The notes: generated from the letters alone by a model not told the origin. DNA of 64,000 nucleotides from Verrucomicrobiota bacterium (GCA_050008355.1 JBEKMT010000007.1:7844-71843), one strand, 5' to 3'. Positions 1 through 42,089 are shown, counted from the stretch's first letter. Numbers and translations are program-made.

Positions 1-1160
1 GCCAGCGACATCGCATATGTGCCGATGGCCGCCAGCACCAGCAGCAACATCGGCAGTCCTTTGACCCCGCTGTGGTAGCCAAAACCCATCGCGATATAAA
101 TGATCGCCAGACCGGCGGCACCGAACAGCATTAGTGGCCGACGTCCGCCACGATCCACGATCACCAGCGCGAACAATGTGAAGACAAGATTCACGGAACC
201 GGTCCACGCGATGTTTTTGAGAACTGACGAAATATCGTAGCCGGCTTGGTGAAAAATCTCCTGTGCGTAATTGAAAATGACATTGATGCCGCACCATTGC
301 TGGAAGACCGCGAGTACCACGCCGAGCGTGATAACCTTGAACATTTTCGGCTCGAGCAGATCGCCAAAACGTACATGTTCGATTTCCTCCGTGGAGAGGG
401 TGGATTTAATCTCTTCGGTCGCCGCGTCCGCATAAATTTTGCCTCCAATCTTTTGCAGGATATCGCGGGCGAGGCTTGCCTTGCCATTTTTCGCCAGCCA
501 GCGCGGGCTTTCAGGCACCAAAAACATTCCGATAAAGAAAAGCAAAGCCGGCGCGGCCGTCAGTCCGAACATCCAGCGCCAGCATTGCTGGCCGAACCAG
601 GAGTTGCGGATGAAGTCGTCGGACGCGCCCGTTGGCAGTTGGTGCCCGAGAAACCAATTGATGTACTGTGCCAGTAGAATGCCGATGACCACGGTGAGTT
701 GATTGATGGCCACCAATTGGCCGCGCATTTGCGCAGGAGCGATTTCCGCGATATACATCGGCGACAAGCTGGACGCCAGACCAATCGCCACGCCGCCAAA
801 GATGCGCCAGCTGATGAAAACCGCAAAATTAGTGGCAAGGGCGTTCCCCAGCGAAGTGACCGCAAAAATCGCGGCGGCGGCAATTAGCAGTCGTTTGCGG
901 CCGAATTTATCGCTCAAGCCACCCGCCGCCAGTGCGCCAAACAGACAACCGATGAGCGCACAGCTGTTTGCCCAACCGATTTGCGCATCTGTCGTCAGCT
1001 CAAAATATGTTTGAAAGAATTGCTTCGCACCGCCGATGACGACCCAATCCCACCCGAATAGTAGCCCACCCATGGCCGCCACCGCGGAAATCAGCCAGAC
1101 ATAACCGAGATTGTATTCGGCTTTGAGTCCTGACGTTTCACTTTGGATTGCAGTAATCAT
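1..1160 (-). CDS. MFS sugar porter (XylE/GalP/AraE family), truncated by the window edge
   Basis: Not in the ORF track. Manual translation from ATG at 1160 gives MITAIQSETSGLKAEYNLGYVWLISAVAAMGGLLFGWDWVVIGGAK...GGLSDKFGRKRLL..., which carries the sugar porter TM1 motif GGLLFG.D and the MFS D.FGRK motif. The frame runs off the left end. Confidence 0.92.
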   Translation of the reverse strand, partial: MITAIQSETSGLKAEYNLGYVWLISAVAAMGGLLFGWDWVVIGGAKQFFQTYFELTTDAQIGWANSCALIGCLFGALAAGGLSDKFGRKRLLIAAAAIFAVTSLGNALATNFAVFISWRIFGGVAIGLASSLSPMYIAEIAPAQMRGQLVAINQLTVVIGILLAQYINWFLGHQLPTGASDDFIRNSWFGQQCWRWMFGLTAAPALLFFIGMFLVPESPRWLAKNGKASLARDILQKIGGKIYADAATEEIKSTLSTEEIEHVRFGDLLEPKMFKVITLGVVLAVFQQWCGINVIFNYAQEIFHQAGYDISSVLKNIAWTGSVNLVFTLFALVIVDRGGRRPLMLFGAAGLAIIYIAMGFGYHSGVKGLPMLLLVLAAIGTYAMSL

Positions 1161-1250
1161 TTCATTTCAGTCTTCGCGACGGAAAACCCATTCGTTTGGT
1201 TGATACGCTTTGTGGAGCCAAGCCATGATGACAAACGGCGCCCCCGCCCG

Positions 1251-1284
1251 GAATGGACATTGCGATGAAGCGCATGGACATTTG
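1251..1284 (-). promoter_or_regulatory. Putative AraC-family operator (TGTCCAT direct repeats 21 bp apart) upstream of the sugar porter
   Basis: Minus strand reads CAAATGTCCATGCGCTTCATCGCAATGTCCATTC, 26/34 identical to the site at 3957-3990. Confidence 0.7.
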
Positions 1285-1334
1285 ACCTAAACCTGAGCTT
1301 CATTTTTCGCGCTTCGAACTCGCATTCCCTAAGA

Positions 1335-2222
1335 CTAGACAACGTAGCGCTGACGGTGTTCAGACGGTGAATGGTTGTGCATCTTTCTGAATGCCCGCGA
1401 AAAATAGAACTGATCGGAGAAACCGAGATGGTCGCTAATCTGTTTGATGGACCAATCCGTTGTGTTCAGCAGCTGCACGGCACGCTGCATCCGCAGGTGG
1501 CTCAAATAAGCCAGCGGTGCATAGCCGGTCACACGCCGGAACAAAGTTGTGTAATGCGAGCGCGATAAATTTACGAGCGCGGCCAGTGTGGCAATGGTCA
1601 AACGCTCGCGCAGGTGGCTTTGCATGAACGCTATGCTGCTATCCATCCGTTCACGAATACTGGTTTCGCCTGACCAGAATTCCTCCTTGTGGCGAAGGAT
1701 TAGTCCCATCAAATGGGCTAGCGAATGAGCGGCGTAAATCAAATGAGTCAGGGTGAAACCGTGTTGCAATCCTTCAAGTACGTCCTCAAATAGCGAAAAT
1801 AATTGCACGTCTCCGCCCAATGAAACCACGGGGGTTTCATCATTAACGCCCAATCGCTCCAGATAGTACGGCACGTTTGAGCCGACGGCATGAAACCAGT
1901 GGATTGTCCATGGATTTTGTTTCGCCGCTCCATAGACATGGGGAACATTCGCATTGATCACCAGCAGTTGATTCTTGCCGATGGCCTGGTGCGATCCGGC
2001 AATTTCACACCAGCCATGGCCCCCGGCGCAATAGATAAAAATCACTTCCGGGCATCCATGTTTTCGGACGCAAGTGTGGCCTTTGGCCTTTGGATAGTAG
2101 CCGGCGTCCGTCGGCAGCAGGTTTTTTAACAACGGATTTTGCAGCAGCGTGGCCAGGACCGGACGCGGCACGACCACGAGGCGCTGGCCTGCAAAACCTT
2201 CGTGTTTCTCGAGTCTTTTCAT
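1335..2222 (-). CDS. AraC-family transcriptional regulator with cupin-type ligand-binding domain
   Basis: N-terminal AraC-binding-like domain (..PHVYGA..PWTIHWFH) and C-terminal double HTH (ISDHLGFSDQFYFSRAFRKMHNHSPSEHR). Likely start is ATG 2222 (MKRLEKHEGF). Confidence 0.92.
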   Translation of the reverse strand: MKRLEKHEGFAGQRLVVVPRPVLATLLQNPLLKNLLPTDAGYYPKAKGHTCVRKHGCPEVIFIYCAGGHGWCEIAGSHQAIGKNQLLVINANVPHVYGAAKQNPWTIHWFHAVGSNVPYYLERLGVNDETPVVSLGGDVQLFSLFEDVLEGLQHGFTLTHLIYAAHSLAHLMGLILRHKEEFWSGETSIRERMDSSIAFMQSHLRERLTIATLAALVNLSRSHYTTLFRRVTGYAPLAYLSHLRMQRAVQLLNTTDWSIKQISDHLGFSDQFYFSRAFRKMHNHSPSEHRQRYVV

Positions 2223-2353
2223 GGAATGAGGAGGGGAAAATGCCGGTTTGCCCAAAAATAGCAAGCCGTCGTCTCAGGTAATCGCCCTGGCAATTTTGTA
2301 ACATTACCTGGCTTGCAAAGCGTCTGATTTGTGGAATTTTGGCTGGCTGCAGC

Positions 2354-3598
2354 ATGAAGAAATTTGTCAAACCGTTCAGTCGCCCGCGAGTGGCTTTGCT
2401 GGTTGAATCTTCCCGCGCCTACGGCCGTGGCATCCTCTCAGGTGTGGCAAAATTTGTTCGTGAACATGATCCGTGGTCCATTTTTTTTCAGGACTTAAAC
2501 CTGTGTGATGACACCCCGGATTGGCTGCAAAACTGGCAAGGCGAAGGCATCATTTCCCGCCTGGAAAATCGGGATGTGGTCCGTGTCATCCAGCGCCTGA
2601 ACGTGCCGGCGGTTTATTTGCGCCATGTCAGTCCCAACTCAAAAATGCCCAGTATTCTTACTGATAACGAGTCCGTATCACGACTGGGGTTTGAGCATTT
2701 GCAGCAACGCGGCTTTCGTCATTACGCCTTTTGCGGCTTTAACGGCGCGGACTATTCCGATGAACGCCGCAACGCCTTTTTGAGGCTGGTGCAGAAGTCG
2801 GGGTTCCGTTGCCACGTTTATACCGACGGACGAAGTCCGGTCAGAGCGGACACCGCGCAATACGAAGGTTGGGGTTTGAAAGATGGCGGACTGGTGGCGG
2901 CTTGGATCAAGCGGCTGCCCAAACCCGTTGGAGTTATGGCCTGCAACGATATGCGGGGCCAGCAGGTGCTGGACGCCTGTCGCGCGATTGGCGTGCCGTC
3001 GCCGGAGGAAGTTGCCGTAATTGGTGCGGACAATGACGATGTCATCTGCAACCTGTGTGACCCTTCGCTTTCCAGTGTCGTCCCCGACACTGGGCGTATC
3101 GGTTACGAAGCCGCCGTGTTGCTGGCACAAATGATGGCGGGAGAAAAACACCCGCCACCTGCGACCTTTGTCGAACCGAGCGGTATCGTTACCCGGCGTT
3201 CAACGGAGGTTCTTGCCATGGAGGACCGGCAAATTGCCGCCGCCACCCGTTTTATTCGCGAACACGCTTGCGAGGGGATAGATGTCAGCGACGTTCTATC
3301 AGCTTTTCCTTTGTCACGCAGCACCATGGACCGGCGGTTTATGAACATCCTGGGTCGTTCACCCAAGGATGAAATCTTGCGCGTCCGGCTGGACCGCGTA
3401 AAACAGCTCCTGGCCGAAACTGACTTTCCTTTGACGCTGATCGCCGAAAAAGTAGGACTCCAACACGTCGAACATTTGAGCCGGATCTTCAAAAACCGGG
3501 TGGGTACCACACCGTCGGAATTCCGTTCGCACGCCCTGGTCAAGGACCGCGCCGATCGCCTGCCTGACGGAAAACTGATTTCAAGGGGGATATCATGA
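2354..3598 (+). CDS. XylR-type hybrid regulator (LacI-like sensor domain plus AraC HTH)
   Basis: RVALLVESSRAYGRGILSGV, KPVGVMACND, PEEVAVIGADND, and C-terminal IAEKVG..HLSRIFK..GTTPSEFR. Likely start ATG 2354. Confidence 0.92.
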   Translation: MKKFVKPFSRPRVALLVESSRAYGRGILSGVAKFVREHDPWSIFFQDLNLCDDTPDWLQNWQGEGIISRLENRDVVRVIQRLNVPAVYLRHVSPNSKMPSILTDNESVSRLGFEHLQQRGFRHYAFCGFNGADYSDERRNAFLRLVQKSGFRCHVYTDGRSPVRADTAQYEGWGLKDGGLVAAWIKRLPKPVGVMACNDMRGQQVLDACRAIGVPSPEEVAVIGADNDDVICNLCDPSLSSVVPDTGRIGYEAAVLLAQMMAGEKHPPPATFVEPSGIVTRRSTEVLAMEDRQIAAATRFIREHACEGIDVSDVLSAFPLSRSTMDRRFMNILGRSPKDEILRVRLDRVKQLLAETDFPLTLIAEKVGLQHVEHLSRIFKNRVGTTPSEFRSHALVKDRADRLPDGKLISRGIS

Positions 3599-3956
3599 AC
3601 ATGGTGTTGCCCACCCCGGCTTGACCCGGCTGGCGGCATTGGTAACGCATTTGGAAAGAATGGTGAAATGACTCCTGACCAAAAACGTCAATTTTTTTCC
3701 CTGATTGTTCATTGGAACAGCTCTGCTCCGATGGTAGATAGTACGCGACACCTTTTGCCGGTCGCACTCATAGCAGCAGATGGTTTGAATGCTGGTTTGC
3801 TCCACGTTCAATATTCTTCGCTGAATGAAAATGCAAGACCGGTGGAAAAAGACACATTAAATTAATGCGTAAGAATCACTAAAAATGGCCAAGAGAATAA
3901 CACTACATGTGTCACCTGCCGTCTTTGCAGTGCCGGCGGTCACTCATTTGAACGGC

Positions 3957-3990
3957 CAAATGTCCATGCGGTTCGGTGATTTGTCTATTC
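3957..3990 (+). promoter_or_regulatory. Putative AraC-family operator upstream of the 4105-10955 operon
   Basis: CAAATGTCCATGCGGTTCGGTGATTTGTCTATTC, with TGTCCAT and TGTCTAT 21 bp apart. It matches the site at 1251-1284. Confidence 0.7.
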
Positions 3991-4104
3991 CTGTGAATAC
4001 TGCTTTATGCGATTTTTATAACATGACCACCAGTTCAAAAATCTAACCGCAACTTGCACCCACGCTCTAACTGATATCCCCCATAAACCCCAACCACATA
4101 AAAC

Positions 4105-7059
4105 ATGAACACACCGAACTTAACGCGCCGCGCTTTCGGCCGGTTTTTTACCTCCGTCAGCTTAATGCTGGTGGCTGCCGGCTCAGCCCGTGCGGATTAC
4201 CAGAGCACAGTGCTCGCTGATAATCCCCTGGCATTTTATGCCCTGAATCCGGCCACGGATCCCGCCGGTACCTCCCCGGATTTGACCGGCAACGGCAACA
4301 ACGGCGTTGCGATTGGGATCTCGGCTGTCGCGGGACCAACAGCCTTTATCACAAATGCAGCATCTTTTGATGGGGAAGCGCTGATTGATTTGAGCGAAGG
4401 CAGCAATCCCAATTTGCTGAACTTTAAGGGTCCAATCACTCTGGAAGCCTGGGCGCAACCTTCCAGCACTTCGCTGTTTGGCGATATCCTTGCCAGAGGT
4501 TATGACCAGGATAATTATAGCGAAATTGCCATCCGGGTTAATGGTCCGTACGGGCAAAATTATTACGGCAGTTCGGGAAGCGTTGGTATTAATGGCGGTA
4601 CGCAAACGACCAATTGGACTTATATCGTCTTATCCAGCGACGGCACCAATTGCAGTCTCTATGAGAATGGTGTGCTGGTGGCCCAACAAGCTGACACGAC
4701 TGGATCCACAACCAATTTTCCTGCTGGAAACGATGATTGGGTCATTGGCAATGGTAGCAGTGCCGGGAACTCCAGGCTCTTCGACGGTGGCATCAGCGAA
4801 GTGGCCATTTATGATCACGGCCTGACCGCAGCCCAGGTCTTAAATCATTATTATGCGGGCGAACTAAATGCTCCCGCCAGCAGCTCTCCCCCCATCATCA
4901 CCACTCAGCCGCAGTCACAACCAAGTTATGTCGGTGGATCGGTGACGTTTACTGTTGGAGTTGTAAGCGCTTATGCCACAACCAATCAATGGTTTTGGAA
5001 TAGTAGCCCGATTAACGGCCAAACTAACGCTTCGCTGACGCTCTCCAATCTGCAGCTCGGCAGCGCCGGTACTTACAGTGTTATCGTCGGTAATATTAAC
5101 GGCACCACCAATAGTTCTTCAGCCACCCTTACCGTCTCCACACCACACGATCTCGAATGGAGTTCTGTTAATAATAATGGCAATTGGGACACCGATACTT
5201 CAACCAACTGGATCAACCTCGCGAACAGTCAGGAAACGGTCTTTAACCCGGGCGACCAGGTTTTGTTCGACGATACACCGGGAGTGCCTACTTCTGTGAC
5301 CGTGAACGGAACGGTTGTTCCCAGCTTGATAACGGTGAATTCCACCAATAATGCCTTCGACATCAGTTCCGGCACCATCAGCGGTTCCGGCGGGTTGATC
5401 AAGGAAGGCCCCAGTACCTTGACTATCACCAGCGCGGGTGGCTTTACCGGTCCGGTGACCATCGGCGGCGGGGTTATCTATGCCGGCAATAATTGTTTTA
5501 ATTCAGTTTCTTCGATTAGCATTACCAATGCCTCCACTTTGGATGTTGGCGGCGGCCAAATCCAGGGCAGCAGACCGGTTACGATATCTGGTGACGGTTT
5601 CAGTGGTGAAGGTGCTCTCTTTAACAGCTACAACAATTACCCCACTGAAGTGATGGATATCACGCTCGCTGGTGACGCCTCTTTCGGTGGCACTGCTCGC
5701 TGGGATCTGGGCTCCGGTTCGCAAATCACCGGGCCTTACACTCTGACGGTCGACTGGTCGGCAGACACGGCCAATGGCTACTATGGCCAATGGAATTCAG
5801 TCGAAATCGGGGCTGATGTGGCTGGTATTACGGTCACCAATGCTCAGAGCGGTAGCGGTGTGACGACAGCGCTCGGGCTGACGGGCATGGACTCGGCTTT
5901 TCAAAATCCTGGCACGCTCGTGACTCTCAACACCAATTGCCAGTTGGTTTTTTATAGTGGTGGATTTAATGGAAGCCTCCATGTCCTTGGCGGCGCGACG
6001 GTCTATCTCGAGACGGAAAACGTGGCGTTCAATGGTGCGAGCCTTACTTTTGAAGGCGGTTCCGCCTGGCAAACCTATTATAATAGTGGCACTAACGCTA
6101 TTAATAGCGCCATCATTTTGGATGGCGTTTCCCACTTCGTGATTGGTGACCACAACATGAATTATACCAACGTGATCAGCGGACCCGGCGGTTTTGTGGA
6201 AGATTATTACAATCACGACATGGTTCTCTCTGCTTCCAACACATATACCGGTCCAACCATCATTGGCAGCAGCGGTAATACCCCGGAGGTTGTCTTGACC
6301 GGAAACGGTTCGATCTCCAGCAGTTCGCTGATTTTCTTCGGCGGTAATATCGCGACGGTGGCCCATATTGATGTGACTGGTCGCTCGGACGACACGCTGA
6401 CGCTGGCCAGCGGGCAGACCCTAGAAGGCATCGGCGGTATCAACGGCAATCTCGTGGTCTCCACCGATGCGATCCTTTCGCCGGGCGGCACCAATACCAC
6501 CATTGGAATCACTACGGGCTCCAACCCTGTTGGGACAGTGGCCGCAAGCGGCAGTGTCACCTTGGACGGTACGACGATTATCAAGCTGGACGGCACGACC
6601 AACGACATTGTTCAGGCAGCGACCGGTATTACTTATGGTGGCACATTGAATCTGGTTAATGTCAGCGGATCGCCACTGGCTGCTGGCAACAGTTTCCCCG
6701 TGTTCGCTGCGGGGAGTTATTCCGGTTCATTTACAGCCATAACGCCGGCAACTCCAGGAACGGGTCTCGCTTGGGACACGTCAAAACTGACCAGCAGCGG
6801 TACGATCAATGTGGTGGCCTCCGGCGGCTCAAGCGTGGTGATCGGGAGTACCACGATCTCGGCTGGAAACTTGGTCTTAGGCGGAACTGGCGGAACGGCG
6901 AACGGCACTTACTATGTGCTGACAGCCACCAATCTGACATCGCCGATCTGGATCCCGGTCTCGACCAACACGTTTGATGCCTCCGGCAATTTCAGCGTCA
7001 CCAATGCCATTAATGCCAATGATCCTCAGCAGTTCTATCGTATTGAACTGGTGCAGTAA
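4105..7059 (+). CDS. Secreted protein: LamG/ConA-like domain, Ig-like domain, autotransporter-associated beta-strand repeats, C-terminal F[FY]R module
   Basis: Signal peptide ending in ARA. LamG motifs ITLEAW and FDGGISEVAIYDHGLTAAQV. Ig motif PIITTQPQSQ...GTYSV. Repeats ISGSGGLIKEGPSTLTI and LSASNTYTGPTII. Ends QQFYRIELVQ. Confidence 0.85.
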   Translation: MNTPNLTRRAFGRFFTSVSLMLVAAGSARADYQSTVLADNPLAFYALNPATDPAGTSPDLTGNGNNGVAIGISAVAGPTAFITNAASFDGEALIDLSEGSNPNLLNFKGPITLEAWAQPSSTSLFGDILARGYDQDNYSEIAIRVNGPYGQNYYGSSGSVGINGGTQTTNWTYIVLSSDGTNCSLYENGVLVAQQADTTGSTTNFPAGNDDWVIGNGSSAGNSRLFDGGISEVAIYDHGLTAAQVLNHYYAGELNAPASSSPPIITTQPQSQPSYVGGSVTFTVGVVSAYATTNQWFWNSSPINGQTNASLTLSNLQLGSAGTYSVIVGNINGTTNSSSATLTVSTPHDLEWSSVNNNGNWDTDTSTNWINLANSQETVFNPGDQVLFDDTPGVPTSVTVNGTVVPSLITVNSTNNAFDISSGTISGSGGLIKEGPSTLTITSAGGFTGPVTIGGGVIYAGNNCFNSVSSISITNASTLDVGGGQIQGSRPVTISGDGFSGEGALFNSYNNYPTEVMDITLAGDASFGGTARWDLGSGSQITGPYTLTVDWSADTANGYYGQWNSVEIGADVAGITVTNAQSGSGVTTALGLTGMDSAFQNPGTLVTLNTNCQLVFYSGGFNGSLHVLGGATVYLETENVAFNGASLTFEGGSAWQTYYNSGTNAINSAIILDGVSHFVIGDHNMNYTNVISGPGGFVEDYYNHDMVLSASNTYTGPTIIGSSGNTPEVVLTGNGSISSSSLIFFGGNIATVAHIDVTGRSDDTLTLASGQTLEGIGGINGNLVVSTDAILSPGGTNTTIGITTGSNPVGTVAASGSVTLDGTTIIKLDGTTNDIVQAATGITYGGTLNLVNVSGSPLAAGNSFPVFAAGSYSGSFTAITPATPGTGLAWDTSKLTSSGTINVVASGGSSVVIGSTTISAGNLVLGGTGGTANGTYYVLTATNLTSPIWIPVSTNTFDASGNFSVTNAINANDPQQFYRIELVQ

Positions 7060-7169
7060 TATTTTGTCTCAAAACAGCGTGACGCTGTAAGAGATTGATT
7101 GAACAGCAAACAGCCGCCGGCTTGACGTTTAGGCTGGCGGCTGGTTTGTCAAAAATGAAAGTACGTAAC

Positions 7170-8000
7170 ATGAAAAGTAACAGGAAAATCAAAGTTGTTT
7201 CGCACCGGGCGGCTGCGTTCACGCTCATTGAGCTATTAGTTGTCATCGCCATCATTGCCATTCTGGCTGCCATGTTATTGCCGGCTCTGGCCAGCGCAAA
7301 ATTGCGCGCCCAGCAGTCCACCTGCATTAACAATCTGAAACAACTGACGCTGTCCGGCCAGATGTATTATGATGACAACAAGACGTTCATCGGCCCGACC
7401 ACCTCCAACCCGGATACCAGCTTGGGCGACTGGATGGGGACGATGCTCGTTTACTATGGTCATGCGACCAACCTGATCTTTGATCCGGCTGCCCCCGACA
7501 AGGGAAATCCCGGCGGACAGAATGCAAACGGATTCGCTGATACGGCCTGGCATTGGACCGTTGGCGGCCCTCCTTACTATGCTGGCAGCTATGGCTTCAA
7601 CAAATGGCTTGAAAGCAATAAGTACTACGGCTATGACGCTCGCAACTTCGGGCAGGAATCGAACGTTCAGCAGCCGGTGATGACTCCTATATTTACGGAT
7701 AGTGCCTGGATCAACTATTACCCGGATGTTGGAGATACACCGCCGACCAGTTTGTATGACCCGATTGATCATCCTGGTGTTAACACGACGGGATTGACAC
7801 GGATATGCATCGCCAGACATGGCGGCAAACCGGCAAGCGCTGCTCCTCGTGCATTGCCTGTCGGTACTACTGCATTGCCCGGAAACATCATAATGGGATT
7901 CTATGACGGCCACGTGGGGTCGGAAAAGCTCCAAACACTTTGGAGCTACTATTGGAATTTGACCTGGGTTCCAAAAGCCAATCCGCCTCCCGTGCTCTAA
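7170..8000 (+). CDS. Prepilin-type N-terminal cleavage/methylation protein of the PVC H-X9-DG (DUF1559-like) class
   Basis: [25 protein letters not shown], then CINNLKQL, and C-terminal RH...GFYDGHV. Start is ATG 7155 or 7170. Confidence 0.9.
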
Positions 8001-8001
8001 A

Positions 8002-10245
8002 ATGAAGTTTCCGCGAGGGGTAGGTTGCGGAATCTTGCTGGCAATTGCTTGGTTGCAATCGACCAGCGCCGCCCCCTCCTTCCGGCAGATCGGAAGCACT
8101 TTGGTCATGTCCAACGGCAATGTCCGGTTGGAATACAACTTGGCCGCCGGCACGACCGACTTTTACTGGGCGAATTCCAAGAAGATTTCAGCCTTTTACA
8201 GCGGTGTCGGGCTGAGTTCGGGATATATCGAAGGTCCCGGTTACAGCAGTTGGGGTTATTCTGTTGTCAACAGCAATCAGGCGGTTGTCGTCGCCACCGG
8301 CGGTGGTTTGCCGACGATGAGGCAATATTTCACGCTGGACCAAAACGACAGTTTTTTGGTCCGCGTTGACTTGACAGGAACCAATCTGAGTGCCAACTGG
8401 ATGGGGCCGGTGGTGGTGGATTCGACCGGTGGCGTGGACATCGGTGTAACCAACGATAATCGCGCACTGTACGTGCCATTTGACAACGATGGCTTCGTTT
8501 CCTACAACGCGATGCCGATAAATGACTCCAGCACCAGTTATGAAGTCGGTGCATTTTTCGATAATACCTCCCGAAACGGGTTGGTGGTTGGCTCGGTCAC
8601 CCACGACACTTGGAAAAGTGGAGTTTATTTTAATGGCGCAAATGACAAGCTGAACCAGATGAATGTGTTTGGTGGGGCGACGTCGCCCTGGGATGTCATG
8701 CCGCATGGATTCGTCTCTGGAAACACGATTTCTTCCCCAACGATGTTTGTCGGGTTTGGTGACGACTGGCGGATGATCATGCAGCAGTATGCCGCTGAAA
8801 ACACCAACTTTACGCCACGAATGATCTGCACCAATAGCGTTCCGTTCGGCTGGAATAGTTGGGGCATCATTCAGGAGAATATCAATTATGCTGATGCTAT
8901 TGCTGTCTCCGATTTTTACCACACCAATCTGGAAACAAAGGGTTTTACCAATAGCCAGGGATTGGTTTATATCAACTTGGATTCCTATTGGAACAACCTG
9001 GATTCTTTTGAACTGCAAAGTTTTGTTAATCACTGTCATGCGCGCGGCCAGAGAGCCGGCATTTACTGGGGGCCGTTCGTATGGTTTGGGTCGGCCGCCG
9101 ACGCGACCAACACTTTTGTGGAAGGCACATCCAACACTTATCGGTATGGCGACGTACTGCTGCGGGATGGCAGTGGCAACTTCGAATCTGTCGACGGCGG
9201 ACTGGCCATGGATCCCACGCACCCGGGCACGCGGGAGTTTATCTCGTATTGGGTTAACCAATTCACCAACTACGGGTTCGATTACATCAAACTTGATTTT
9301 CTATCGCACGGCGCTTTGGAAGGGGTTCATTATGACACCAATATAACGACGGGTATTCAGGCCTATAATGAAGGTATGTCGAATGTAATCAGCCAGATCA
9401 ACGGCACCATGTTTGTCAGCGAATCCATCGCGCCGCTGTTCCCGTATCAATACGGCGAAAGCCGACGCATCGCCTGCGACGCGGAGTCTTCTTTGATCAG
9501 CAACACTGAATATACTTTAAACTCGGTCACTTATGGTTGGTGGTTGGACAATTTGTATCAATTCAATGACCCGGATATCATGGTGTTCAATGGCTACGGC
9601 GCCACCGCCAATGAAAGCCAAAGCCGGCTCATTAGCGGAGCGGTTACCGGAGTTTTTCTCGATGGAGACGATTTGACGTCCACCAATGGCCAACAAGCGG
9701 CGGATTCTTTTTTGACCAATGATGCCGTCAACGCCGTTGCCCGCGTTGGCCGGACCTTCACTCCGGTCGAAGGCAATACCGGAACCGGCGCCGCCGATAT
9801 TTTTGTCCGGCAGGACGGGGCAATCTGGTGCATCGCTGTTTTTAATTACACCTCCAGTGCGACGAACGAAACTGTTGATCTGAATCGCGCCGGTCTGCCA
9901 TCGGGAACTTACGTCGCGACTAATTTATGGGATGGAACGACGATGATAGTTTCCAGCACTTTTAATGTCCTCTTGAATCCAAAACAGGCAAAGTTGTTTC
10001 AGTTGGCAAATTATGTCCCTGCTCCGAAATTTACGGACACGAAGATCGTCGGCCGCAACTTGATCCTCAGCGGCAACGGTGGCGCGAACGGAGTCCCTTA
10101 TTATGTCCTCATGGCGACGAACCTGACGACCCCACTCGCCAACTGGGTGGTCGTGACAACAAACTTATTTGACGCCTCTGGCAATTTTATGGTCACCAAC
10201 GCCTTCAACTCAAATAATTTACAACAGTTTTATCGCATCAAATGA
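8002..10245 (+). CDS. Secreted clan GH-D glycosidase (GH27/GH36, alpha-galactosidase-like) with C-terminal F[FY]R module
   Basis: Signal peptide, PFGWNSWG, YINLDSYW, GFDYIKLDF (nucleophile), RRIACD and FNDPD. Melibiase-like C-terminal domain. Ends QQFYRIK. Confidence 0.85.
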   Translation: MKFPRGVGCGILLAIAWLQSTSAAPSFRQIGSTLVMSNGNVRLEYNLAAGTTDFYWANSKKISAFYSGVGLSSGYIEGPGYSSWGYSVVNSNQAVVVATGGGLPTMRQYFTLDQNDSFLVRVDLTGTNLSANWMGPVVVDSTGGVDIGVTNDNRALYVPFDNDGFVSYNAMPINDSSTSYEVGAFFDNTSRNGLVVGSVTHDTWKSGVYFNGANDKLNQMNVFGGATSPWDVMPHGFVSGNTISSPTMFVGFGDDWRMIMQQYAAENTNFTPRMICTNSVPFGWNSWGIIQENINYADAIAVSDFYHTNLETKGFTNSQGLVYINLDSYWNNLDSFELQSFVNHCHARGQRAGIYWGPFVWFGSAADATNTFVEGTSNTYRYGDVLLRDGSGNFESVDGGLAMDPTHPGTREFISYWVNQFTNYGFDYIKLDFLSHGALEGVHYDTNITTGIQAYNEGMSNVISQINGTMFVSESIAPLFPYQYGESRRIACDAESSLISNTEYTLNSVTYGWWLDNLYQFNDPDIMVFNGYGATANESQSRLISGAVTGVFLDGDDLTSTNGQQAADSFLTNDAVNAVARVGRTFTPVEGNTGTGAADIFVRQDGAIWCIAVFNYTSSATNETVDLNRAGLPSGTYVATNLWDGTTMIVSSTFNVLLNPKQAKLFQLANYVPAPKFTDTKIVGRNLILSGNGGANGVPYYVLMATNLTTPLANWVVVTTNLFDASGNFMVTNAFNSNNLQQFYRIK

Positions 10246-10955
10246 TTATCAAATCGAGCCACACCATGATGATGAAATACCTCCTTACTCTCGCGTTGAT
10301 TGCCAGCTTCGCGACATTTGCCAAGGCGGAACTCTTAACCGATCCGCCCGCAGCCCGCGAATCCATCGAATGGTGTGACATCTGGATTTCACACGCTAAT
10401 GAAACCAATTTGCCGCGCGTTTTGCTGATCGGCGATTCGATCACGCGTGCTTACTATCCCGAGGTTGAGAAAGACCTCGTCGGCAAAGCGTACGTCGGAC
10501 GGTTTTCCAGTTCGGCTTTCATTTCCGACCCGGCACTGCTCAAGCAAATTGAAATGGTGTTGAGCCAGTACAAGTTCGACATCATCCATTTCAATAACGG
10601 CATGCATGGCTGGCAACATAGCGAGGAGCAATATGCGCAAGCCTTTCCGGAGTATCTCAAGACCATACAAAAATACGCGCCCGATGCAAAACTGATTTGG
10701 GCGGACACAACGCCGTTTAAAGTGTCACCGCGCTTGCCGCCGGACAATCAAACCGTTGCCACGGATGAACGTATCGCGGCGCGTAATGACATCGCCCACA
10801 CAATTATCCGGGCGCGGGGAATACCCGTGGACGACTTAAATATGCCGATGCGCGGCCATCCCGAGTATCACTCCGATAACGTTCATTTCAATGAGCTGGG
10901 GATTGCCATCCAGGCCGCACAAGTTGCCGCCCAAATCGAGAAGCTGCTAAATTAA
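10242..10955 (+). CDS. Secreted SGNH/GDSL hydrolase
   Basis: LLIGDSIT, FNNGMHG and DNVHF motifs plus signal peptide. ATGA overlap with the upstream gene, although a later ATG (10266-10272) is possible. Confidence 0.88.
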   Translation: MIIKSSHTMMMKYLLTLALIASFATFAKAELLTDPPAARESIEWCDIWISHANETNLPRVLLIGDSITRAYYPEVEKDLVGKAYVGRFSSSAFISDPALLKQIEMVLSQYKFDIIHFNNGMHGWQHSEEQYAQAFPEYLKTIQKYAPDAKLIWADTTPFKVSPRLPPDNQTVATDERIAARNDIAHTIIRARGIPVDDLNMPMRGHPEYHSDNVHFNELGIAIQAAQVAAQIEKLLN

Positions 10956-11027
10956 GCTCCAGTTTCGCAGTCGACCGGATTCCGGGACGCGCCGATCTTC
11001 CCAATCGGTGGCCGCCCGGCGGATGGT

Positions 11028-12716
11028 TTACTTATTTATCAATTCGATTTCGTTGATGGTCGGCGCGTCGGTGGCGTCGAGTATGTTCAACCGGAATTCT
11101 CGCGCTGACACCGGGTCAAAGGATTGCTCAAAGTGGTTTCCCAGTTTCGTGCCGGAAAAGATCGTTCTCCAGTCATCGCCGTTTCGATACTGAAATTCAT
11201 ATCGTTGCACGCGGTTTGCGTAGGCCTCGGAAATCCGCACGCCGCCAATAGTACGCGGTCCGGCGTAAGCCACCGCTATCCATGCCTGCTTTGTGCCGCT
11301 ATCGGTAGCCCAGCGGGTTTGCTCGTCGCCGTCAAATGCATTCTGAGCGCCATAATCTGCGTTGTCGTTTTGATACACATTTGATGCGTCGGCTTCAAAA
11401 CCGCGTGGCAATTCTACCGCTGGAATCGCCATCGCCGAGCCGCCAAGTTCCAATTTTATCACTGTGTCAGCGGTATCGCGCTCAGCTGCCGGAACCGTGA
11501 TCAACAGTTTTCCGGCCTTCCGGGCGAAGGACACATTGCGGCCGCCTAGAATCCCGGAGGATTTGATTTGACCGACGATGTCTGGCAATTCGACAGTCTC
11601 ATTATCACCGTGCAGGAGGTGAACATAAATCACACTGCCGCTTCGCGTGCTTGCAATAGACTTCGTCGGCTTCCAGGGGCCGCCGCGCGTGCCATATATA
11701 CTTTCGCCATTTTTGGAGAGCCAGGCGCCAACTTGCTGCAACACAGTAATTTGGCGAGGTTCGATGCGGCCATCAGGCATCGGGCCGACGTCCAGTAGGA
11801 GGTTCCCGTCGCCGCCGACGCATTGCGCCAGAATGGAGATTACCTTGCTCGCCGGTTTGATTTCGTCATCGGGTTTCCACGCCCACTGCGTCCCGATTGT
11901 CATGCACGTCTCCCACGGAGTTCTGTCATCGTACGCCCCAATGCTTTGTTCCGGTGTGTAATAATCTTCGTTTGGCTTCAACCGGCCCTGGTGCGCCCAT
12001 TCATAAAAACTATCCATTTGCAAACGGTTGTTGATAATGATGTCCGGCTGCAATCCACGCACCAGGGGATAAGTCGTCGCCGGCTCCCACATTGTTGGAA
12101 GACCGTCGGTGTCAAACCAGAGCACATTGATGGTGCCGTAATCGGACAGCAATTCGCGCAGCTCAGCCTGGATCTTTTTTACAAAACGGGAGTTGTGCGC
12201 GGAACGGCAATCCGGATCGCGCCAATCCATCGGCGAAAAATACCATCCAATTTTCTCATCTTGCGCGTGCGCTGCCGCAGCCAGTTCTGCGCAAACATCT
12301 CGATGGAACGGTGTCGCTGCAATGTTATAAGCGTCCACTTTAGAGTCCCACAACAAAAAGCCGTCGCCGTGTTTAGCGGTCAGCACCATGTATTTCATGC
12401 CGGCAGACTTGGCGGTCCGCACCCATTCGTCGGCGCTGAAATTGGTCGGGTTGAACTGTTTGTAAAGATTATCGTACACCTTGACCGGGATCGGGCCGTT
12501 ATTCGGGCAGTTGGAATTGGAATTCGCGCGCGACCAGCTGATCTCCTGTCCCGTCAGGCTGACCGGGCCCCAATGAATGAACATCCCGAAACGCCCGTTA
12601 CGCCACCACGCCATCCGGGCGGCTGATTGGCCGGGGGATTCAGCATGCACACCAGTGACGATTGCGCAAACGGCGAATAGGATGTAATTCGCAATAGATT
12701 TATTATTTTTCATCAT
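11028..12716 (-). CDS. Alpha-L-fucosidase (GH29) with C-terminal F5/8 type C (CBM32-like) domain
   Basis: RFGMFIHWG, AGMKYMVLTAKHGDGF, VLWFD, WETCMT, GNLLLDVGP, and C-terminal NAFDGDEQTRWAT. Confidence 0.93.
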   Translation of the reverse strand: MMKNNKSIANYILFAVCAIVTGVHAESPGQSAARMAWWRNGRFGMFIHWGPVSLTGQEISWSRANSNSNCPNNGPIPVKVYDNLYKQFNPTNFSADEWVRTAKSAGMKYMVLTAKHGDGFLLWDSKVDAYNIAATPFHRDVCAELAAAAHAQDEKIGWYFSPMDWRDPDCRSAHNSRFVKKIQAELRELLSDYGTINVLWFDTDGLPTMWEPATTYPLVRGLQPDIIINNRLQMDSFYEWAHQGRLKPNEDYYTPEQSIGAYDDRTPWETCMTIGTQWAWKPDDEIKPASKVISILAQCVGGDGNLLLDVGPMPDGRIEPRQITVLQQVGAWLSKNGESIYGTRGGPWKPTKSIASTRSGSVIYVHLLHGDNETVELPDIVGQIKSSGILGGRNVSFARKAGKLLITVPAAERDTADTVIKLELGGSAMAIPAVELPRGFEADASNVYQNDNADYGAQNAFDGDEQTRWATDSGTKQAWIAVAYAGPRTIGGVRISEAYANRVQRYEFQYRNGDDWRTIFSGTKLGNHFEQSFDPVSAREFRLNILDATDAPTINEIELINK

Positions 12717-12793
12717 CGGCTAGCGGCACGTCAGAGGCTACTACCCCCAATCGGCTTGGTTCAGCTGGCTGATGTTGTTCAAGTTGACAGATC

Positions 12794-13852
12794 ATGAACA
12801 AGGAAATCTTGCAAAATTGTTCGGCGAAGAATATTGAACAAGTTGTGAACGCAAGGCCAACCTACCGGGCGCGAAACGCCCAATACGAAATTGACCGTTG
12901 CGAGCCGCAGAATCGCGCGATTGAAATGGGCAAAATCCTCTTTCACGCGCTGACGAAGGGTCATTACCCCGGCACACCCGTCCCGGAAAATGTCCTGTCC
13001 GGCTTGAGCAGCATCGGCTTTTGGAACGCTGGCGGGGCCCAGGATTGGGGCTTGGATGCCCATCGCAACGAAGGCATCGAAATCATGTTTCTGGAAACGG
13101 GCACGACGGCTTTTGTCGCTGACGGGAAAAAATATGATCTGCGTGCGGGGCAGTTCACCATCACCCGCCCTTGGCAGCTCCACAAACTCGGCGCCCCCAA
13201 CATCGGGCCCGGCCGATTGCACTGGTTGATCCTGGATGTTGGCGTGCGGCGACCACACCAGAACTGGCACTGGCCAGCGTGGATGGTGTTGACCAAGGAC
13301 GACCTTGCCGAGCTGACCCGCGAATTGCGTCAGGATGAGAATCCCGTATGGAACGCCACTCCTGCCATCGCCCATGCTTTCCGCGAGCTCGCCCGCACCG
13401 TCGAGGCCTGGAATCAGCCTCATGCTGTCTCGCGGTTGGCCACCCATTTGAACCAGCTCTTTCTGAGCATCCTGGACACTTTGTCCGAACAACCGACGCA
13501 TGAATCTCCCAACCTGACTTCGCGCCAGCGCATGGTAGAATTATTTCTGCATGAAGTGGAAAATAACCCGGCCATCACCCGTGAGCCGTGGACCATTAAC
13601 AGCATGGCGGAACATTGCGGCATGGGCGTGACGGCGTTTTCCCAGTACTGCCGCGAATTGGTTAACACCGGCCCGATGGAATACCTGAACCAGTTCCGTC
13701 TCGAATTCGCTGCGCGCGAACTTCGCGCTGAACCGGAAACTTCCATCACGGACATTGCCTATCGAAACGGTTTTAACGCCAGCCAATATTTCGCCACGCG
13801 TTTCCGCCAGCGCTTTGGTTGCACCCCCAGCGATTACCGCCATCAGAAATGA
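12794..13852 (+). CDS. AraC-family transcriptional regulator, divergent from the fucosidase
   Basis: Cupin HRNEGIE...PWQLH and C-terminal ITDIAYRNGFNASQYFATRFRQRFGCTPSDYR. True start may be GTG 12845. Confidence 0.9.
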   Translation: MNKEILQNCSAKNIEQVVNARPTYRARNAQYEIDRCEPQNRAIEMGKILFHALTKGHYPGTPVPENVLSGLSSIGFWNAGGAQDWGLDAHRNEGIEIMFLETGTTAFVADGKKYDLRAGQFTITRPWQLHKLGAPNIGPGRLHWLILDVGVRRPHQNWHWPAWMVLTKDDLAELTRELRQDENPVWNATPAIAHAFRELARTVEAWNQPHAVSRLATHLNQLFLSILDTLSEQPTHESPNLTSRQRMVELFLHEVENNPAITREPWTINSMAEHCGMGVTAFSQYCRELVNTGPMEYLNQFRLEFAARELRAEPETSITDIAYRNGFNASQYFATRFRQRFGCTPSDYRHQK

Positions 13853-16898: not shown

Positions 16899-19800
16899 AT
16901 GAAAGATCGGCGTTCAATTCCTGGGTTCCTTCGATGCGGGATTGACTCATGCCGGTGGGTTCAAGTTCTCCTCGGCATGGCCAGCTTGCTCGTTTCGCCG
17001 CCCGTGGCTCGGGCCGCCGATGCGGTAGGCGGGGGCTGGCTGCAGGGAGGAGTCTTGGGACAGTACTATCCCAACGCCAACTTTGCCGGCGCTCCGGCCT
17101 TCACACGGCGGGATGTGCGCATTGATTTTGACTGGGGCTCTTTCGGGCAACCGGGCGGCTCACCGGCGCCCGGCTTTAACGCCGTCAGTAATCAGAATTT
17201 TTCCGTCGTCTGGACCGGCCAGATCATGCCCCGATTCAGCGAGACCTACACCTTCACGCTGATCGCCGATGCCGGGGCGACGTTATCCATCCAGCCGACG
17301 AACTCTTCCACTTGGACAACGCTGGTAACAGCATCGACCGGCAACACCAATTCAGCCGCCACAAATATGGTGGCAGGTCAGACCTATAACCTGCAGCTCT
17401 CCTACCACGAGACCACGGGCACGCCTGTGTGCCGGCTGTGGTGGTCCAGCCCCAGCACGCCGGAAGAGGTTCTGGACACCGTCACGCTGGCGGGGCTGAA
17501 TGTGGATACATATGGCGCATACGATTATCAGTTGTATGCCAACGCCATGGACGACGGCCGCGACGAATGGGGCACCTATAATGGAGGAACCCTGATCCCG
17601 ACGCCTCGCGACACCAATGGCTGGCCCACCGCCGACGCCACGAACATAGTGTTCGAAGGCGCCGGCGAAAATGGCGCCAGCATCGTGACCGGTACCTATC
17701 TGCTTCAGTTTCAGGGGCAAGCTTCGGTCCATTGTGCTCTGAACACTGGCACACTGGTGGTTGACGGCACCAACTACGGCAGCAACCTGCCTTTCGGAAC
17801 CGGCTACAATTCGACCAGCAATCTCACCAGCGCCAACCTAATCGTTGCCACCAATAGCGCCGGCATTTTGTATTTGGGTTTCCAAAACACCAGGCGGAAT
17901 CCAGGCGACGCAACCAACACAGGTGTAGCCGATGTGAAGCTCATGCGCCCCGTTAGCCCGGGCAGCACCAATTGTTTTCCGGTGGGCACTTTCTTCTATG
18001 CGCCCTTCGAGAGTGCTGTCCAGCGCTTCACGATCTTGCGTTGGATCCAGAATAATCAGGTGGTACCCGACACCGAGTGGACCAACCGTCCCGACACCGA
18101 GCTGCCGGCTTATTCCACCCATAATTCCCAAGGCACCCTGCGTTATTGGGAATATATGGTCATGCTGGCCAATGAGTGCGGGAAGGATCTTTACCTGTGT
18201 TTTCCTGGGCAGGCATCGAACGATTACCTGACCAATGTCGCCAACCTGATCTGCTATGGTTCCGACGGTGTGAACCCTTATGCCTCGCCGCAGGCCAGTC
18301 CGGTTTACCCTCCGCTCAATCCAAACCTGCGGATCATCCTCGAACACCAGAATGAGGTTTGGAATTTTTCCTTCCTCAACTGGGGACAAAACCTCAGCGC
18401 CATGCTCGAGGCGTACACCAACAATACGCCCGACTGGCAGATTGTTGATTATGACGGAGTCTATGACCCTGCCACCGGTGCCGGCAACCAATTTCAGGCG
18501 GCTATGCGCTGGCACATTCTCCGTGCTTTGCGTTGTTCGGATATTTTCCGCTCTGTCTTCGGGGACGCCGCCATGGGTTCGCGGGTGAGGGTGATTTACG
18601 AATATCAATACGACGACGCCAACAACACAGCCTCGTTTGCACTGCCTTTCATTGACAATTATTTTAATAACAGCGACGGCAGCAACCATGTGGCCACGCC
18701 TTATCCTGTCAACCACTATTTCTGGGGTGCCGGCGGTGCGGTCTATTATGGCAGCGGCGATGAGAATGGCATACAGACCAATATCGTTTTTGCCGACAGC
18801 GGCTTTGAGACTCCCGCCCTGCCGGCAGGTGGAGTGGAGACCAATCCGGCCGACGCCTCCTGGCGGTTCAGCGGTGACGCCGGAATCTACAACGCCGCGG
18901 TGAGTGGGCTCGGGAATCCGCCCGCTCCACCTGATGGTTCTCAGGCGGCCTTCATTCAAGGTACCGGGGCGATCAGCCAGACGGTGAACTTCACTACCAC
19001 CGGCGCGTATGCTCTCGGATTTCAGAGCGCGGAACCCACCAATAATATTAACAGTGTTCAGTTTTATTTTGACGATACTTTGATCACCCCCAATGGCAGC
19101 TACGCCGACGGCCCGTCTGCGAACCAATGGGTGCCGGGTTCCTTTGGAGTAAGCGCCCAAACCTTTAGCTCCTACTCGACTTATGTGTTCCAGGTAACCA
19201 ACCCGGGACCGCACACGCTCACCATTCAGGGTCTGGGGATTGGCCAATACGACCCTACAAACACCCCGCCGAATAACAATTTATTCATCTATTTCGACGA
19301 CTTGGAAATTGCCAGCGCCGCGGCGCTCTTTGCCGGCGGCATTCCCGGCCCCGGGGTTGCCAATGGCCAGGTTGGGAACGCCGGTTATTCTGTGCAACTC
19401 GACGCGCAGGCGCACTACGCGCAGGCCTACGGTCTCCAAGTTGTCGCTTATGAGGGCGGCTGGTCATTGGGAGGCGACTTCAACAAGACCGCCTTCGAGA
19501 ACTGGTGCGGATTCTACGACCCGCAAGCGGAGTTCGTTAATTTAAACGCCCTCAACACTTTTGCCCAGAGCGGCAGCCGCTATTATGTATTCGGCACGTA
19601 CGAAACCTGGCCCGGTTACGATACAGTTAATGTCGGCAACTTTCCTCTCGTTCAGGGCGTGGACGCTGCCAACGCCGCCCTCCCAGCTTCCCCTCTCAAT
19701 GGCATCAACGTGCCCAATGTGCTGACCCCTGCGAACAACAGCTGGCTGGTCAATGCCAACGCCAATTCCGATTCCATCAGCGGTACCGGCGGTTGGTTTT

Positions 19801-40552: not shown

Positions 40553-40693
40553 CCCTTCGCGGACAGCTGCGAGATGTGAGTTTGAGCGTGAACCTCACGC
40601 ACATTGCGTGAAATTCACGCGCATTTATCAGCAGGTTTACTTATTTTCTTGATAATTGGGCCCGGCATGGTCTCTGCTTAGTTGTATTCGACC

Positions 40694-41908
40694 ATGAAGA
40701 TTCCACTTTTGCGTCGCAAGGCGGGGGCTTTTACCTTGGTGGAATTGTTGGTGGTCATCGCCATCATCGGCATCCTGGCTGCGTTACTCCTGCCGGCGTT
40801 GCAGCAAGGCCAGGCCAGGGCCAAGCGAATGGAATGTATCAGCAACCTCCGGGAGATCGGCCTCGCATGTCATTTGTTTGCCAACGACCACGGCGGGCAA
40901 TTCCCGACCCAAGTCTCCACTAACGACGGCGGGTCGATGGAATTCGTCACCGCCGGCGACCAATTGCAAACCCGATTTTATTTTTCCTATAAACTTTTCT
41001 TGCCCCTTTCCGGCTCGCTTGGCACACCCAGGCTCCTGGCCTGCCCGGCGGACATGGAGCGGTGGTCCTCATCCAATTTTATAAAGTTTAATAATTGGAA
41101 TTTGAGCTATGCCATCGGCGTCAAAACTGAACCGCTCAACGCCGGCAGTGTCCTCGCAGCCGATCGCACTCTTCCTCTTTGCAAATCTCCCGGCTTTACC
41201 CCCAACCCAAGCATCGGAATCATTGATCCGCCAATTGCGAACGGAAACTGGGGGCCAGGTTTGCATGACTACAAAGGTGACGTTTTGTTCGCGGATGATC
41301 ACGTTGAGGAATCTCGCAATGCACTGCTGCCGTCGGAACTCACCGTGGATAATTTCCTTTTTTTTCCCGATGTCAATGGATCCCCGAATCCTCCATCTGG
41401 CGGAGGCTCCGGCGGCGCTCCGACTCAAAGCGGCCCCTCTACCCCATGGGTGCCTCCAACCGGCAATCCGGAAAACCCGGTCTCGCAAAACCCTGCTGCC
41501 TATACGCCGGTTCAGCCCAATAATCAGGGTTCCCATGCGCAGCCAGGTGCGCCCCCAAGCCCGGTGTCGCAGCATCCTGCGACCCAAACGGCAGATCAAA
41601 TGCTTTCCTCATCCGTTAATCGTCCGAACGTCGCAACCGCCCCCGTGTCCACGACGCCTCCGATGGATTTCTCGAACAGCATCACCGAAGCCGCTCCGGC
41701 CGCAACCAATTTCGCGGCGATTGAAGTCATCGCGACCAACAACGACGATCCGACCCTGTCCCCGGTTAATCAAAGGGTAGCGCATTACTTGAGATGCGTA
41801 TTCGGCTGGATTTTCCTGTTACTCTTATTGTTGTTGCTGCTGGAAATATGGCGTCGGTTGCGTCGACAAAAGGAAAAGGCAAACCGCACCCGCCAAAACT
41901 CCTGTTAA
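40694..41908 (+). CDS. Prepilin-type protein with Pro/Ser/Thr-rich stalk and C-terminal TM anchor
   Basis: [39 protein letters not shown] and [16 protein letters not shown], then a low-complexity linker and [22 protein letters not shown]. Confidence 0.85.
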
Positions 41909-42089
41909 GCTGCAATCATCGCCAGCTTGGATTTTCTGATTCCAACTCCAGGCACAACTCCGGGCTCCTCTTGAAAATTCTAGCGTAAAACGAGACCATC
42001 ACATTTTCTTCATCCGCCTCTCTGTTAATGTCCACGAGATGCAAAACTAGCAACTGGATTCCAGCTCCTGACTTTTGTACTATCCCCCG

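Follow-up and report, generated by a model that had tools for sequence, protein, structure and literature searches.

Why does a type IV pilin-like gene stand in the middle of a gene cluster for glycan utilisation? This question is raised by a 64,000-nucleotide stretch of DNA from a Verrucomicrobiota bacterium (GCA_050008355.1, JBEKMT010000007.1:7844-71843), which we call the window. At its left end (1-13852) lies a locus in which the gene of a pilin-like protein (P0002) is placed between the genes of a secreted lectin-like protein (P0001) and a secreted glycosidase (P0003). An earlier note on this DNA had taken P0002 for an adaptor or tip subunit of a type II secretion or type IV pilus-like machine, which exports or displays the neighbouring proteins or captures the glycan. 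We found this interpretation of the pilin within the glycan locus partly supported. The pilin-like gene did not come into the cluster by chance but is a conserved part of it, and the neighbour that it invariably keeps is the gene of the LamG-type protein rather than that of the enzyme.

In Planctomycetota and Verrucomicrobiota, few paralogue families are larger than that of the prepilin-type DUF1559-like proteins, and the conserved pairing hints that these abundant, unexplained proteins aid capture or export in glycan feeding. A gene pair that survives rearrangement in a cluster of predictable substrate also offers a testable handle, with a single pilin, its lectin-like partner and a single class of glycan to examine. 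The host is a soil or wetland verrucomicrobium, Limisphaerales- or Pedosphaera-like; close relatives of the locus proteins were labelled Verrucomicrobiae, Limisphaerales or Pedosphaera by their sources. The core of the locus comprises the following features.

4105-7059, plus strand: secreted lectin-like protein P0001, 984 amino acids (Laminin_G_3, E 8e-17; Ig_3)
7106-7150, plus strand: stable hairpin between the P0001 and P0002 genes, from RNA folding
7170-8000, plus strand: type IV pilin-like protein P0002, a pseudopilin (N_methyl, TIGR02532; other starts at 7095 and 7155)
8002-10245, plus strand: secreted glycosidase P0003 of clan GH-D (GH27/GH36-like), 747 amino acids, from a profile search against PDB
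10242-10955, plus strand: SGNH/GDSL esterase (Lipase_GDSL_2, E 5.9e-11)

Conservation of the pilin-LamG pair in other genomes

We sought the adjacency from three start genes: the glycosidase, the pilin and the LamG protein. That the pilin is part of the locus, as the earlier note had assumed, was borne out: a pilin-like gene lies directly beside a LamG-type gene in 20 further loci of other genomes, upstream of it in 11 and downstream in nine.

The glycosidase-started search gave 11 loci from named metagenome-assembled genomes, one of them too short to judge. In all 10 judgeable loci the pilin-like gene directly adjoins the LamG-type gene. Two of these pilins had been missed by the open reading frame (ORF) picker and were identified by reading frames. 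The order is pilin, LamG, glycosidase in seven loci (L003-L006, L010, L012 and L011, the contig of the last including just the end of the pilin gene). In the other three (L007, L009 and L013), the pilin is between LamG and glycosidase, as in the window. The esterase gene comes after that of the glycosidase in six of the seven pilin-upstream loci and in nine of all 11 loci; it was not seen in L006 and L009.

The pilin-started and LamG-started searches used the same sample of 150 genomes of the order. Immediately upstream of each of the five pilin matches with 250 bits or more, a LamG-type protein ending in the F[YF]R domain described below is encoded, and the next gene after the pilin encodes the glycosidase in three cases, a DUF5107 protein in one and a major facilitator superfamily (MFS) protein in one. 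Among 24 more distant pilin relatives, only three had a LamG-like neighbour within 1.5-kb flanks. Starting from the LamG protein, we found an adjacent pilin for all five full-length orthologues (four upstream, one downstream), and a downstream pilin for all four long forms and for the weaker relative L156. In one further match, the glycosidase and the repeat region form a single protein.

The loci of the two collections have no 31-mers in common. Two pilin subfamilies are involved, scoring 65-74 and 243-378 bits to P0002. In the pilin-downstream arrangement, the GH-D enzyme is next after the pilin in seven of nine loci, and a DUF5107 or MFS gene takes this place in the other two. The pairing was kept across inverted orders, two pilin subfamilies and changing neighbours.

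Some related arrangements were also seen. Of the 649 matches, 120 longer relatives were listed; one of them, P0457, is a natural fusion between a pilin and Laminin_G_3. On contig C6 of genome G212 (L147, L116/L154), both pilin-LamG arrangements occur about 17-20 kb apart. In L003-L006, L010 and L012, a conserved protein of about 247 amino acids is encoded directly before the pilin gene; the only copy scanned (L004, 5400-6143) had a PEP-CTERM motif, with GH95 and galK/galT genes further upstream.

Neighbours of pilin-like genes within the genome

The assembly has 5.46 Mb in 359 contigs (94.3% complete, 6.1% contamination), and the contig of the window has 80 kb. About 99 pilin-like genes were found. 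Seven of the 99 had a LamG neighbour on the same strand, compared with 1.9 ± 1.3 (maximum 6) in 500 length-matched permutations. We also compared 78 operonic pilin neighbours (same-strand genes at most 150 bases from a pilin gene) with 78 length-matched controls. The neighbours included Ig_3 in 10 cases, Laminin_G_3 in six, extracytoplasmic function (ECF) sigma factors in four, T2SSK in two and the glycoside hydrolase (GH) families GH78, GH16 and GH97 in two, two and one. Neither Ig_3 nor Laminin_G_3 was among the 25 commonest families listed for the controls, the lowest rows of which have one member. Overall, 135 families were matched by the controls and 86 by the pilin neighbours. The expectation that carbohydrate-active enzymes (CAZymes) are enriched beside pilins was not borne out: canonical CAZymes are not clearly enriched in this genome, whereas Ig_3 and Laminin_G_3 are. 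The tallies comprise the 25 commonest Pfam families and do not fully count rare CAZyme families.

The order of Ig/lectin protein, pilin and secreted glycosidase is repeated at two other places of this genome, where the enzyme is of family GH78. On C31 and C291, the first protein has an Ig domain, the second is a pilin and the third is a GH78 rhamnosidase; the first and the third both end in the F[YF]R domain. On C157, the closest paralogue of P0002 lies between an Ig_3 protein and a 748-amino-acid protein of the LamG-partner family, for which no PDB match was found at E ≤ 0.01.

Could the adjacency be inherited or neutral, reflecting nothing but the large number of pilin paralogues near genes of large secreted proteins? 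The abundance of pilin-like genes fits this, length-matched controls give more chance adjacency than plain ones, and the related loci, all from one order, could have a common origin. However, across many families of the order, pilin and LamG genes remain adjacent even where the gene order is inverted, the pilin is of another subfamily or the other neighbours have changed. Within the genome, LamG adjacency exceeded all 500 permutations, and the three-part order is repeated with unrelated enzymes. We consider it quite unlikely that the pilin and its neighbour lack any functional coupling.

The pilin-like protein P0002

P0002 carries a prepilin signal, scoring 31.0 bits against PF07963 N_methyl (cut-off 21.2) and 24.2 bits against TIGR02532 (cut-off 16.3). 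It is a class III signal with the (G/A)-F-T-L-x-E motif. Residues F17, T18, L19, I20 and E21, which include F1 and E5 of the mature protein, are invariant in 64 orthologues. Glu5 is thus kept, and P0002 is ill-suited to be a capping subunit. The AF2 model (pLDDT 85) has an N-terminal helix of about 50 residues (19-70) plus strands. In VIA-align, its top rows were mostly pilins and pseudopilins at weak Z scores of 3-4.1, and Foldseek gave no PDB match at E ≤ 0.001. The signal is of the pilin type, and the modelled fold is pilin-like, though with weak structural scores.

The earlier note had described an H-X(n)-DG pseudopilin of the DUF1559/H-X9-DG kind. The prepilin signal upholds the pilin call, but the family thresholds are not reached. 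The score against DUF1559 (PF07596) was 16.6 bits, under the curated cut-off of 23.3, and TIGR04294 (H-X9-DG) gave no match at E ≤ 0.01. A few orthologues carry PF07596 in precomputed hits. By translation and conserved columns, the tail motif is H-X28-DG, with H217 and D246 almost invariant among orthologues. P0002 resembles the DUF1559/H-X9-DG paralogues in its N-terminal signal, similar size, H...DGH tail and many paralogues per genome, and differs from them in falling below both curated thresholds and in having 28 rather than nine residues between H and DG. Judged by its sequence, it is best called a divergent relative of this family. The available part of PMC10632474 describes the function of the DUF1559 family as unknown and reports two essential members. 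In the searchable literature, supplements excluded, we found neither a function for DUF1559 nor a paper linking DUF1559-like pilins to glycan clusters.

Pfam names DUF1559 SBP_bac_10, and a solute-binding protein family is what it is called in the part of PMC2754498 at hand. P0002 might then be an inner-membrane-anchored periplasmic binder of glycans or oligosaccharides, or a sensor partner of the regulators or the MFS porter of the locus, and not a filament subunit. Such a role would suit its large, weakly pilin-like head, the three sugar regulators within the locus, the share of ECF sigma factors among operonic neighbours (4/78) and the many database entries in which LacI/GntR-type sugar regulators are joined to pilin-like genes. 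These joins may, however, be run-ons of gene calling. Moreover, the invariant neighbour is a secreted lectin-like protein rather than a transporter or regulator, and a class III signal with F1 and E5 in 64/64 orthologues is a hallmark of polymerising subunits. We regard a binder or sensor as possible but doubtful.

The database entries in question join a LacI/GntR-type regulator to a DUF1559-type pilin in one predicted protein (P0432, P0439, P0452, P0472, P0478, P0480, P0495, P0501, P0506, P0519 and P0522), and their sources include Verrucomicrobia, Lentisphaeria and Omnitrophota. They are either run-on gene calls or true fusions; either way, regulator-pilin adjacency is recurrent. In the genome studied here, three related ECF-sigma-like genes (on C100, C293 and C2) are each directly upstream of a pilin-like gene. 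The window itself has a second pilin-like gene (40682-41908, plus strand), which is unusually long (408 amino acids) and is followed on the same strand by a 403-amino-acid gene (42028-43239).

The lectin-like protein P0001 and the hairpin

P0001 consists of a signal peptide, LamG, Ig, a region of beta-strand repeats and a C-terminal Fn3-like F[YF]R domain. The repeats after Ig matched TIGR02601 marginally, at 18.9 bits and below the cut-off of 19.85. The signal peptide (4105-4200) contains T-R-R-A-F-G, which we take to resemble a twin-arginine (Tat) export motif. The signals of P0003 and the esterase looked, by eye, like ordinary Sec-type signals.

The hairpin that follows the P0001 gene has a folding energy of -31.3 kcal/mol (z -5.3), and none of 200 shuffles was equally stable. 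G+C-rich palindromes occur at the corresponding position in L007 and L113. The element may be an attenuator, or it may process or stabilise the mRNA.

Three wetland metatranscriptome runs held small word shares (0.05-0.12). Their contigs match two parts of the lectin-like gene (4036-5070 and 6426-7000, with 0-1 differences) and one part of the glycosidase gene (8083-8313). For the pilin gene there were only matches of 30-33 bases at 7242-7274, with two differences each, which possibly come from paralogues. They are evidence neither that the pilin gene is transcribed nor that the genes are co-transcribed.

The shared C-terminal domain

The tails of P0001 and P0003 share 45% identity over 105 amino acids (E 9e-20), so the related C-terminal domains that the earlier note had seen on both flanking proteins are real. 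A hidden Markov model of the domain, iterated on the genome's ORFs, found 127 ORFs, 120 of them with the domain within 25 residues of the C-terminus; better gene calls gave 122 domain-bearing genes. In this genome, the domain nearly always stands at the extreme end of the protein. One instance in the window is a 776-amino-acid NHL-repeat beta-propeller protein (22881-25211, plus strand), which ends in ...QLFFRLASP.

Five isolated tails had no Pfam family at E ≤ 10, Por_Secre_tail included, and with whole domain-bearing proteins NCBIfam gave no C-terminal-domain match at E ≤ 0.01. The nearest clusters in a protein atlas were unnamed, had no Pfam family and were mostly from Verrucomicrobiota. 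The model of the domain (pLDDT 90) is a six-strand sandwich. Foldseek found no PDB match for it at E ≤ 0.001, and VIA-align placed it with generic Fn3/Ig sandwiches (best Z 8.1; 327 chains at Z ≥ 5). When 1.84 billion representatives were searched with a profile, the matches numbered 46,751 at E ≤ 0.001 and 5,069 at E ≤ 1e-10. Among the best 150 matches, 129 had 2-12 copies of the domain, in a ranking by total score that favours multi-copy proteins. Some proteins of Verrucomicrobiae (P0244, P0247, P0248 and others) have 5-12 tandem copies covered by no Pfam family. Among 22 full-length carriers scanned, Ig_3 was present in four, BspA-type leucine-rich repeats in three, Laminin_G_3 in three and GH78 in two; others had beta-propellers, PA14 or GH13. 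A crude regular expression for signal peptides matched 77/122 domain-bearing and 199/500 random genes, a comparison too rough to use. Since this large family of F[YF]R domains lacks a Pfam model, it would merit an entry of its own.

The domain invites comparison with the C-terminal domains of type IX secretion, which are likewise beta-sandwiches of about 60-80 amino acids at the extreme C-terminus of many secreted proteins. It differs in having no match to the Pfam/NCBIfam models in the searches run and in occurring also as tandem internal copies. SprA (TIGR04189) and GldM (TIGR03517) gave no matches in this genome, but 14 control genomes were equally silent.

If the domain were an export tag, the pilin could be a cargo-specific adaptor of type II secretion, recognising the tag on both flanking proteins and driving their export. 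Both neighbours do end in the domain, the sandwich of domain protein, pilin and domain protein is repeated on C31 and C291, and secretins and ATPases are encoded in the genome. Nine of the 99 pilin-like genes had a domain-bearing neighbour on the same strand, about twice the 4.5 ± 1.9 of length-matched permutations. (An earlier permutation without length matching, with 8/97 against 2.7 ± 1.7, was replaced by this test.) However, the observed nine is inside the permutation range (maximum 11), and about 110 of the roughly 122 domain genes have no pilin neighbour. In the two loci where a DUF5107 or MFS gene follows the pilin, the domain was not seen in the fetched part of that gene, and 2-12 tandem copies inside proteins are unlike a terminal signal.

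Phyletic coupling was not found either. In 81 sampled genomes of the phylum, this one included, the domain was matched in 39 and pilin-like genes in 80. In the 80 genomes other than this one, the two counts were uncorrelated (Spearman -0.08). A domain match was absent from all 12 genomes that had 100 or more pilin candidates, and one genome had 41 domain matches and only 12 pilin candidates. Divergent copies may have escaped a profile that derives from this lineage, and related genomes do not count as independent samples. The special link between pilin and C-terminal domain that had been suggested was thus not substantiated. The domain is a general Fn3-like module of surface and secreted proteins in the phylum, not the pilin's recognition handle. 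A prediction of the complex of pilin head (40-276) and C-terminal domain scored 0.00 in two runs without controls, which speaks neither for nor against binding. We consider a tag-reading adaptor highly improbable.

Other genes of the locus and the putative substrate

P0003 had no Pfam or NCBIfam match, and no paralogue of it was found in this genome. A profile of P0003 and 23 relatives matched GH27 structures 5awo (E 2.2e-7) and 3cc1 (E 1.7e-6) and GH36 structure 1zy9 (E 1.6e-4) in PDB, over spans of about 50-140 residues. Some relatives bear Melibiase_C or are named alpha-galactosidase by their source. K430, D432 and F433 are invariant in the 24 sequences and align with the YFKIDF stretch of 1zy9. 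In clan GH-D, the catalytic Asp lies in a K-x-D-F strand motif, to which these residues may correspond. Given the profile matches to GH27/GH36 structures and Melibiase_C in relatives, "GH27/36-like", as the enzyme had been called, seems a fair label at the level of the clan; the matches are weak and consistent, but they do not reach a Pfam or NCBIfam family.

One base (8001) separates the P0002 and P0003 genes, and the P0003 and esterase genes overlap in ATGA (10242-10245), as previously noted. Through this overlap the esterase appears to be translationally coupled to the glycosidase. The remaining genes of the locus and of its left flank, the 7.8 kb of contig before the window, are listed below.

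Left flank (three proteins): GH36 alpha-galactosidase with NPCBM domain; aldose 1-epimerase (mutarotase); 1202-amino-acid DUF5107-TPR protein
3-1160, minus strand: MFS sugar porter (Pfam Sugar_tr, E 1.7e-82), its C-terminal end beyond the window's left edge
1335-2264, minus strand: AraC-family regulator (Pfam AraC_binding and HTH_18)
2339-3598, plus strand: XylR-type regulator, a periplasmic-binding-protein-like sensor with AraC-type helix-turn-helix (Peripla_BP_3, E 1.6e-36; HTH_18; PBP1_XylR)
11028-12716, minus strand: GH29 alpha-L-fucosidase with F5/8 type C domain (Alpha_L_fucos, E 2.1e-76)
12794-13852, plus strand: second AraC-family regulator (HTH_18 and AraC_binding/Cupin_2)

Pfam thus confirmed the sugar porter, the three regulators (two AraC and one XylR-type), the GH29 enzyme and the co-directional run where the earlier note had placed them. 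Its description of a glycan-utilisation cluster also agrees with the co-location of GH29, GH36, the GH-D-like enzyme, the SGNH esterase, the mutarotase, the MFS porter and three regulators. Parts of this surrounding are conserved. The MFS porter has orthologues in the related loci L007, L009, L116 and L151, the first AraC regulator (1335-2264) is kept beside the cassette in L007, L009 and L013, and orthologues of the XylR-type regulator are upstream of the cassette in L003 and L144.

The pilin-upstream loci additionally hold genes for a galactokinase, a Gal-1-P uridylyltransferase, a GH95 fucosidase, a GH27 enzyme with NPCBM, a small PEP-CTERM protein and enolase-superfamily, SDR and FAH-family proteins. 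The last three presumably serve fucose catabolism, going by the family names. Together with GH29, GH36, the mutarotase and the MFS porter, these genes suggest that the substrate might be a glycan rich in fucose and alpha-galactose.

The locus had been described as lacking SusC/SusD, and this was correct: no SusD or TonB-dependent receptor is encoded in 1-13852. The same holds for the 7.8 kb to the left, so SusC/D genes just outside the window do not complete a conventional polysaccharide utilisation locus (PUL). SusD_RagB had no match in the whole assembly (94.3% complete), and the four TonB_dep_Rec matches are all on contigs other than that of the locus. SusC/D-free "CAZyme-rich gene clusters" are a recognised category in metagenome surveys, according to the portion of PMC10877868 available. 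As in these clusters and in Bacteroidota PULs, glycosidases, an esterase, a candidate surface glycan binder, sugar-responsive regulators and a transporter are co-located. The locus differs from Bacteroidota PULs in having no SusC/SusD pair, with no SusD match in the genome, an MFS porter for uptake and a pilin-like gene as a conserved member. It bears on how Verrucomicrobiota, important glycan degraders lacking SusC/D, capture polymers.

Secretion machinery and proposed function

The genome encodes the machines on which a pilin could work. It has six secretin matches, 14 T2SSE matches (six of GspE/PilB size and several of PilT size) and a prepilin peptidase (Peptidase_A24, on C341). Our preferred reading, which we hold tentatively and at somewhat less than even chance, is that P0002 is a specialised minor (pseudo)pilin which acts jointly with its lectin-like neighbour, on a machine of the type II secretion or type IV pilus kind. 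After processing by the prepilin peptidase encoded in the genome, P0002 would be handled by one of these machines. It would then present P0001 at the cell surface, or be required for its export; we infer this display or export, and the physical interaction it implies. Through the lectin-like protein, the cell would keep hold of the glycan for trimming by the secreted glycosidase and esterase. The resulting fragments would be processed to completion by GH29, GH36 and the mutarotase, and the sugars taken up through the MFS porter, with the AraC/XylR regulators inducing the whole locus.

Several points weigh against this reading. The hairpin between the lectin-like and pilin genes could separate their expression. 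The head of P0002 resembles solved pilins weakly. Three partial LamG relatives (L151, L153 and L155) had no pilin on the side covered. Within the genome, a LamG neighbour is lacking for 92 of the 99 pilin-like genes, so the pairing can account for only part of the paralogue family, and the genome-wide statistics take crude ORF picks as gene calls. The substrate is assigned from family names alone.

Comparable systems are known among type IV filaments. In the part of PMC9934059 that was available, PilC of Streptococcus sanguinis is a pilin bearing a concanavalin-A-like lectin module and an Ig-like module, and diderm type IV pili present the non-pilin adhesin PilC/PilY1 through minor pilins. The likeness is that a pilin-type subunit is genetically tied to concanavalin-A-like/LamG and Ig-like modules, with secretin, ATPases and prepilin peptidase encoded elsewhere in the genome. 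The differences are several. Here the lectin is a separate 984-amino-acid protein with Sec- or Tat-type secretion, neither grafted onto a pilin nor a PilY1 homologue. The candidate pair is in a sugar-catabolic cluster and not in a pilus operon, and there is one solo pilin rather than a set of four. The pilin, LamG and Ig modules, split here over two adjacent genes inside a catabolic cluster, may represent a variant of the minor-pilin-plus-adhesin theme.

A broader idea, which we offer as speculative and rather unlikely, is that the hundreds of solo DUF1559-type pilin-like paralogues in PVC bacteria are interchangeable, substrate-specific tool heads on one shared machine. Each pilin would be paired with its own secreted lectin-like or Ig-domain protein, often plus an exo-glycosidase, and the common machine, a type IV filament or a type II secretion system, would be re-equipped for many different glycans. 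If true, this would provide a SusC/D-independent counterpart of the PUL and explain the largest unexplained paralogue family of these phyla.

Genes to the right of the locus

To the right of the locus, a gene at 16899-21320 (plus strand) encodes a 1473-amino-acid protein with PA14, fn3 and chitobiase/hexosaminidase C-terminal domains. It is preceded by genes for an amino-acid permease and an af470-like monooxygenase.

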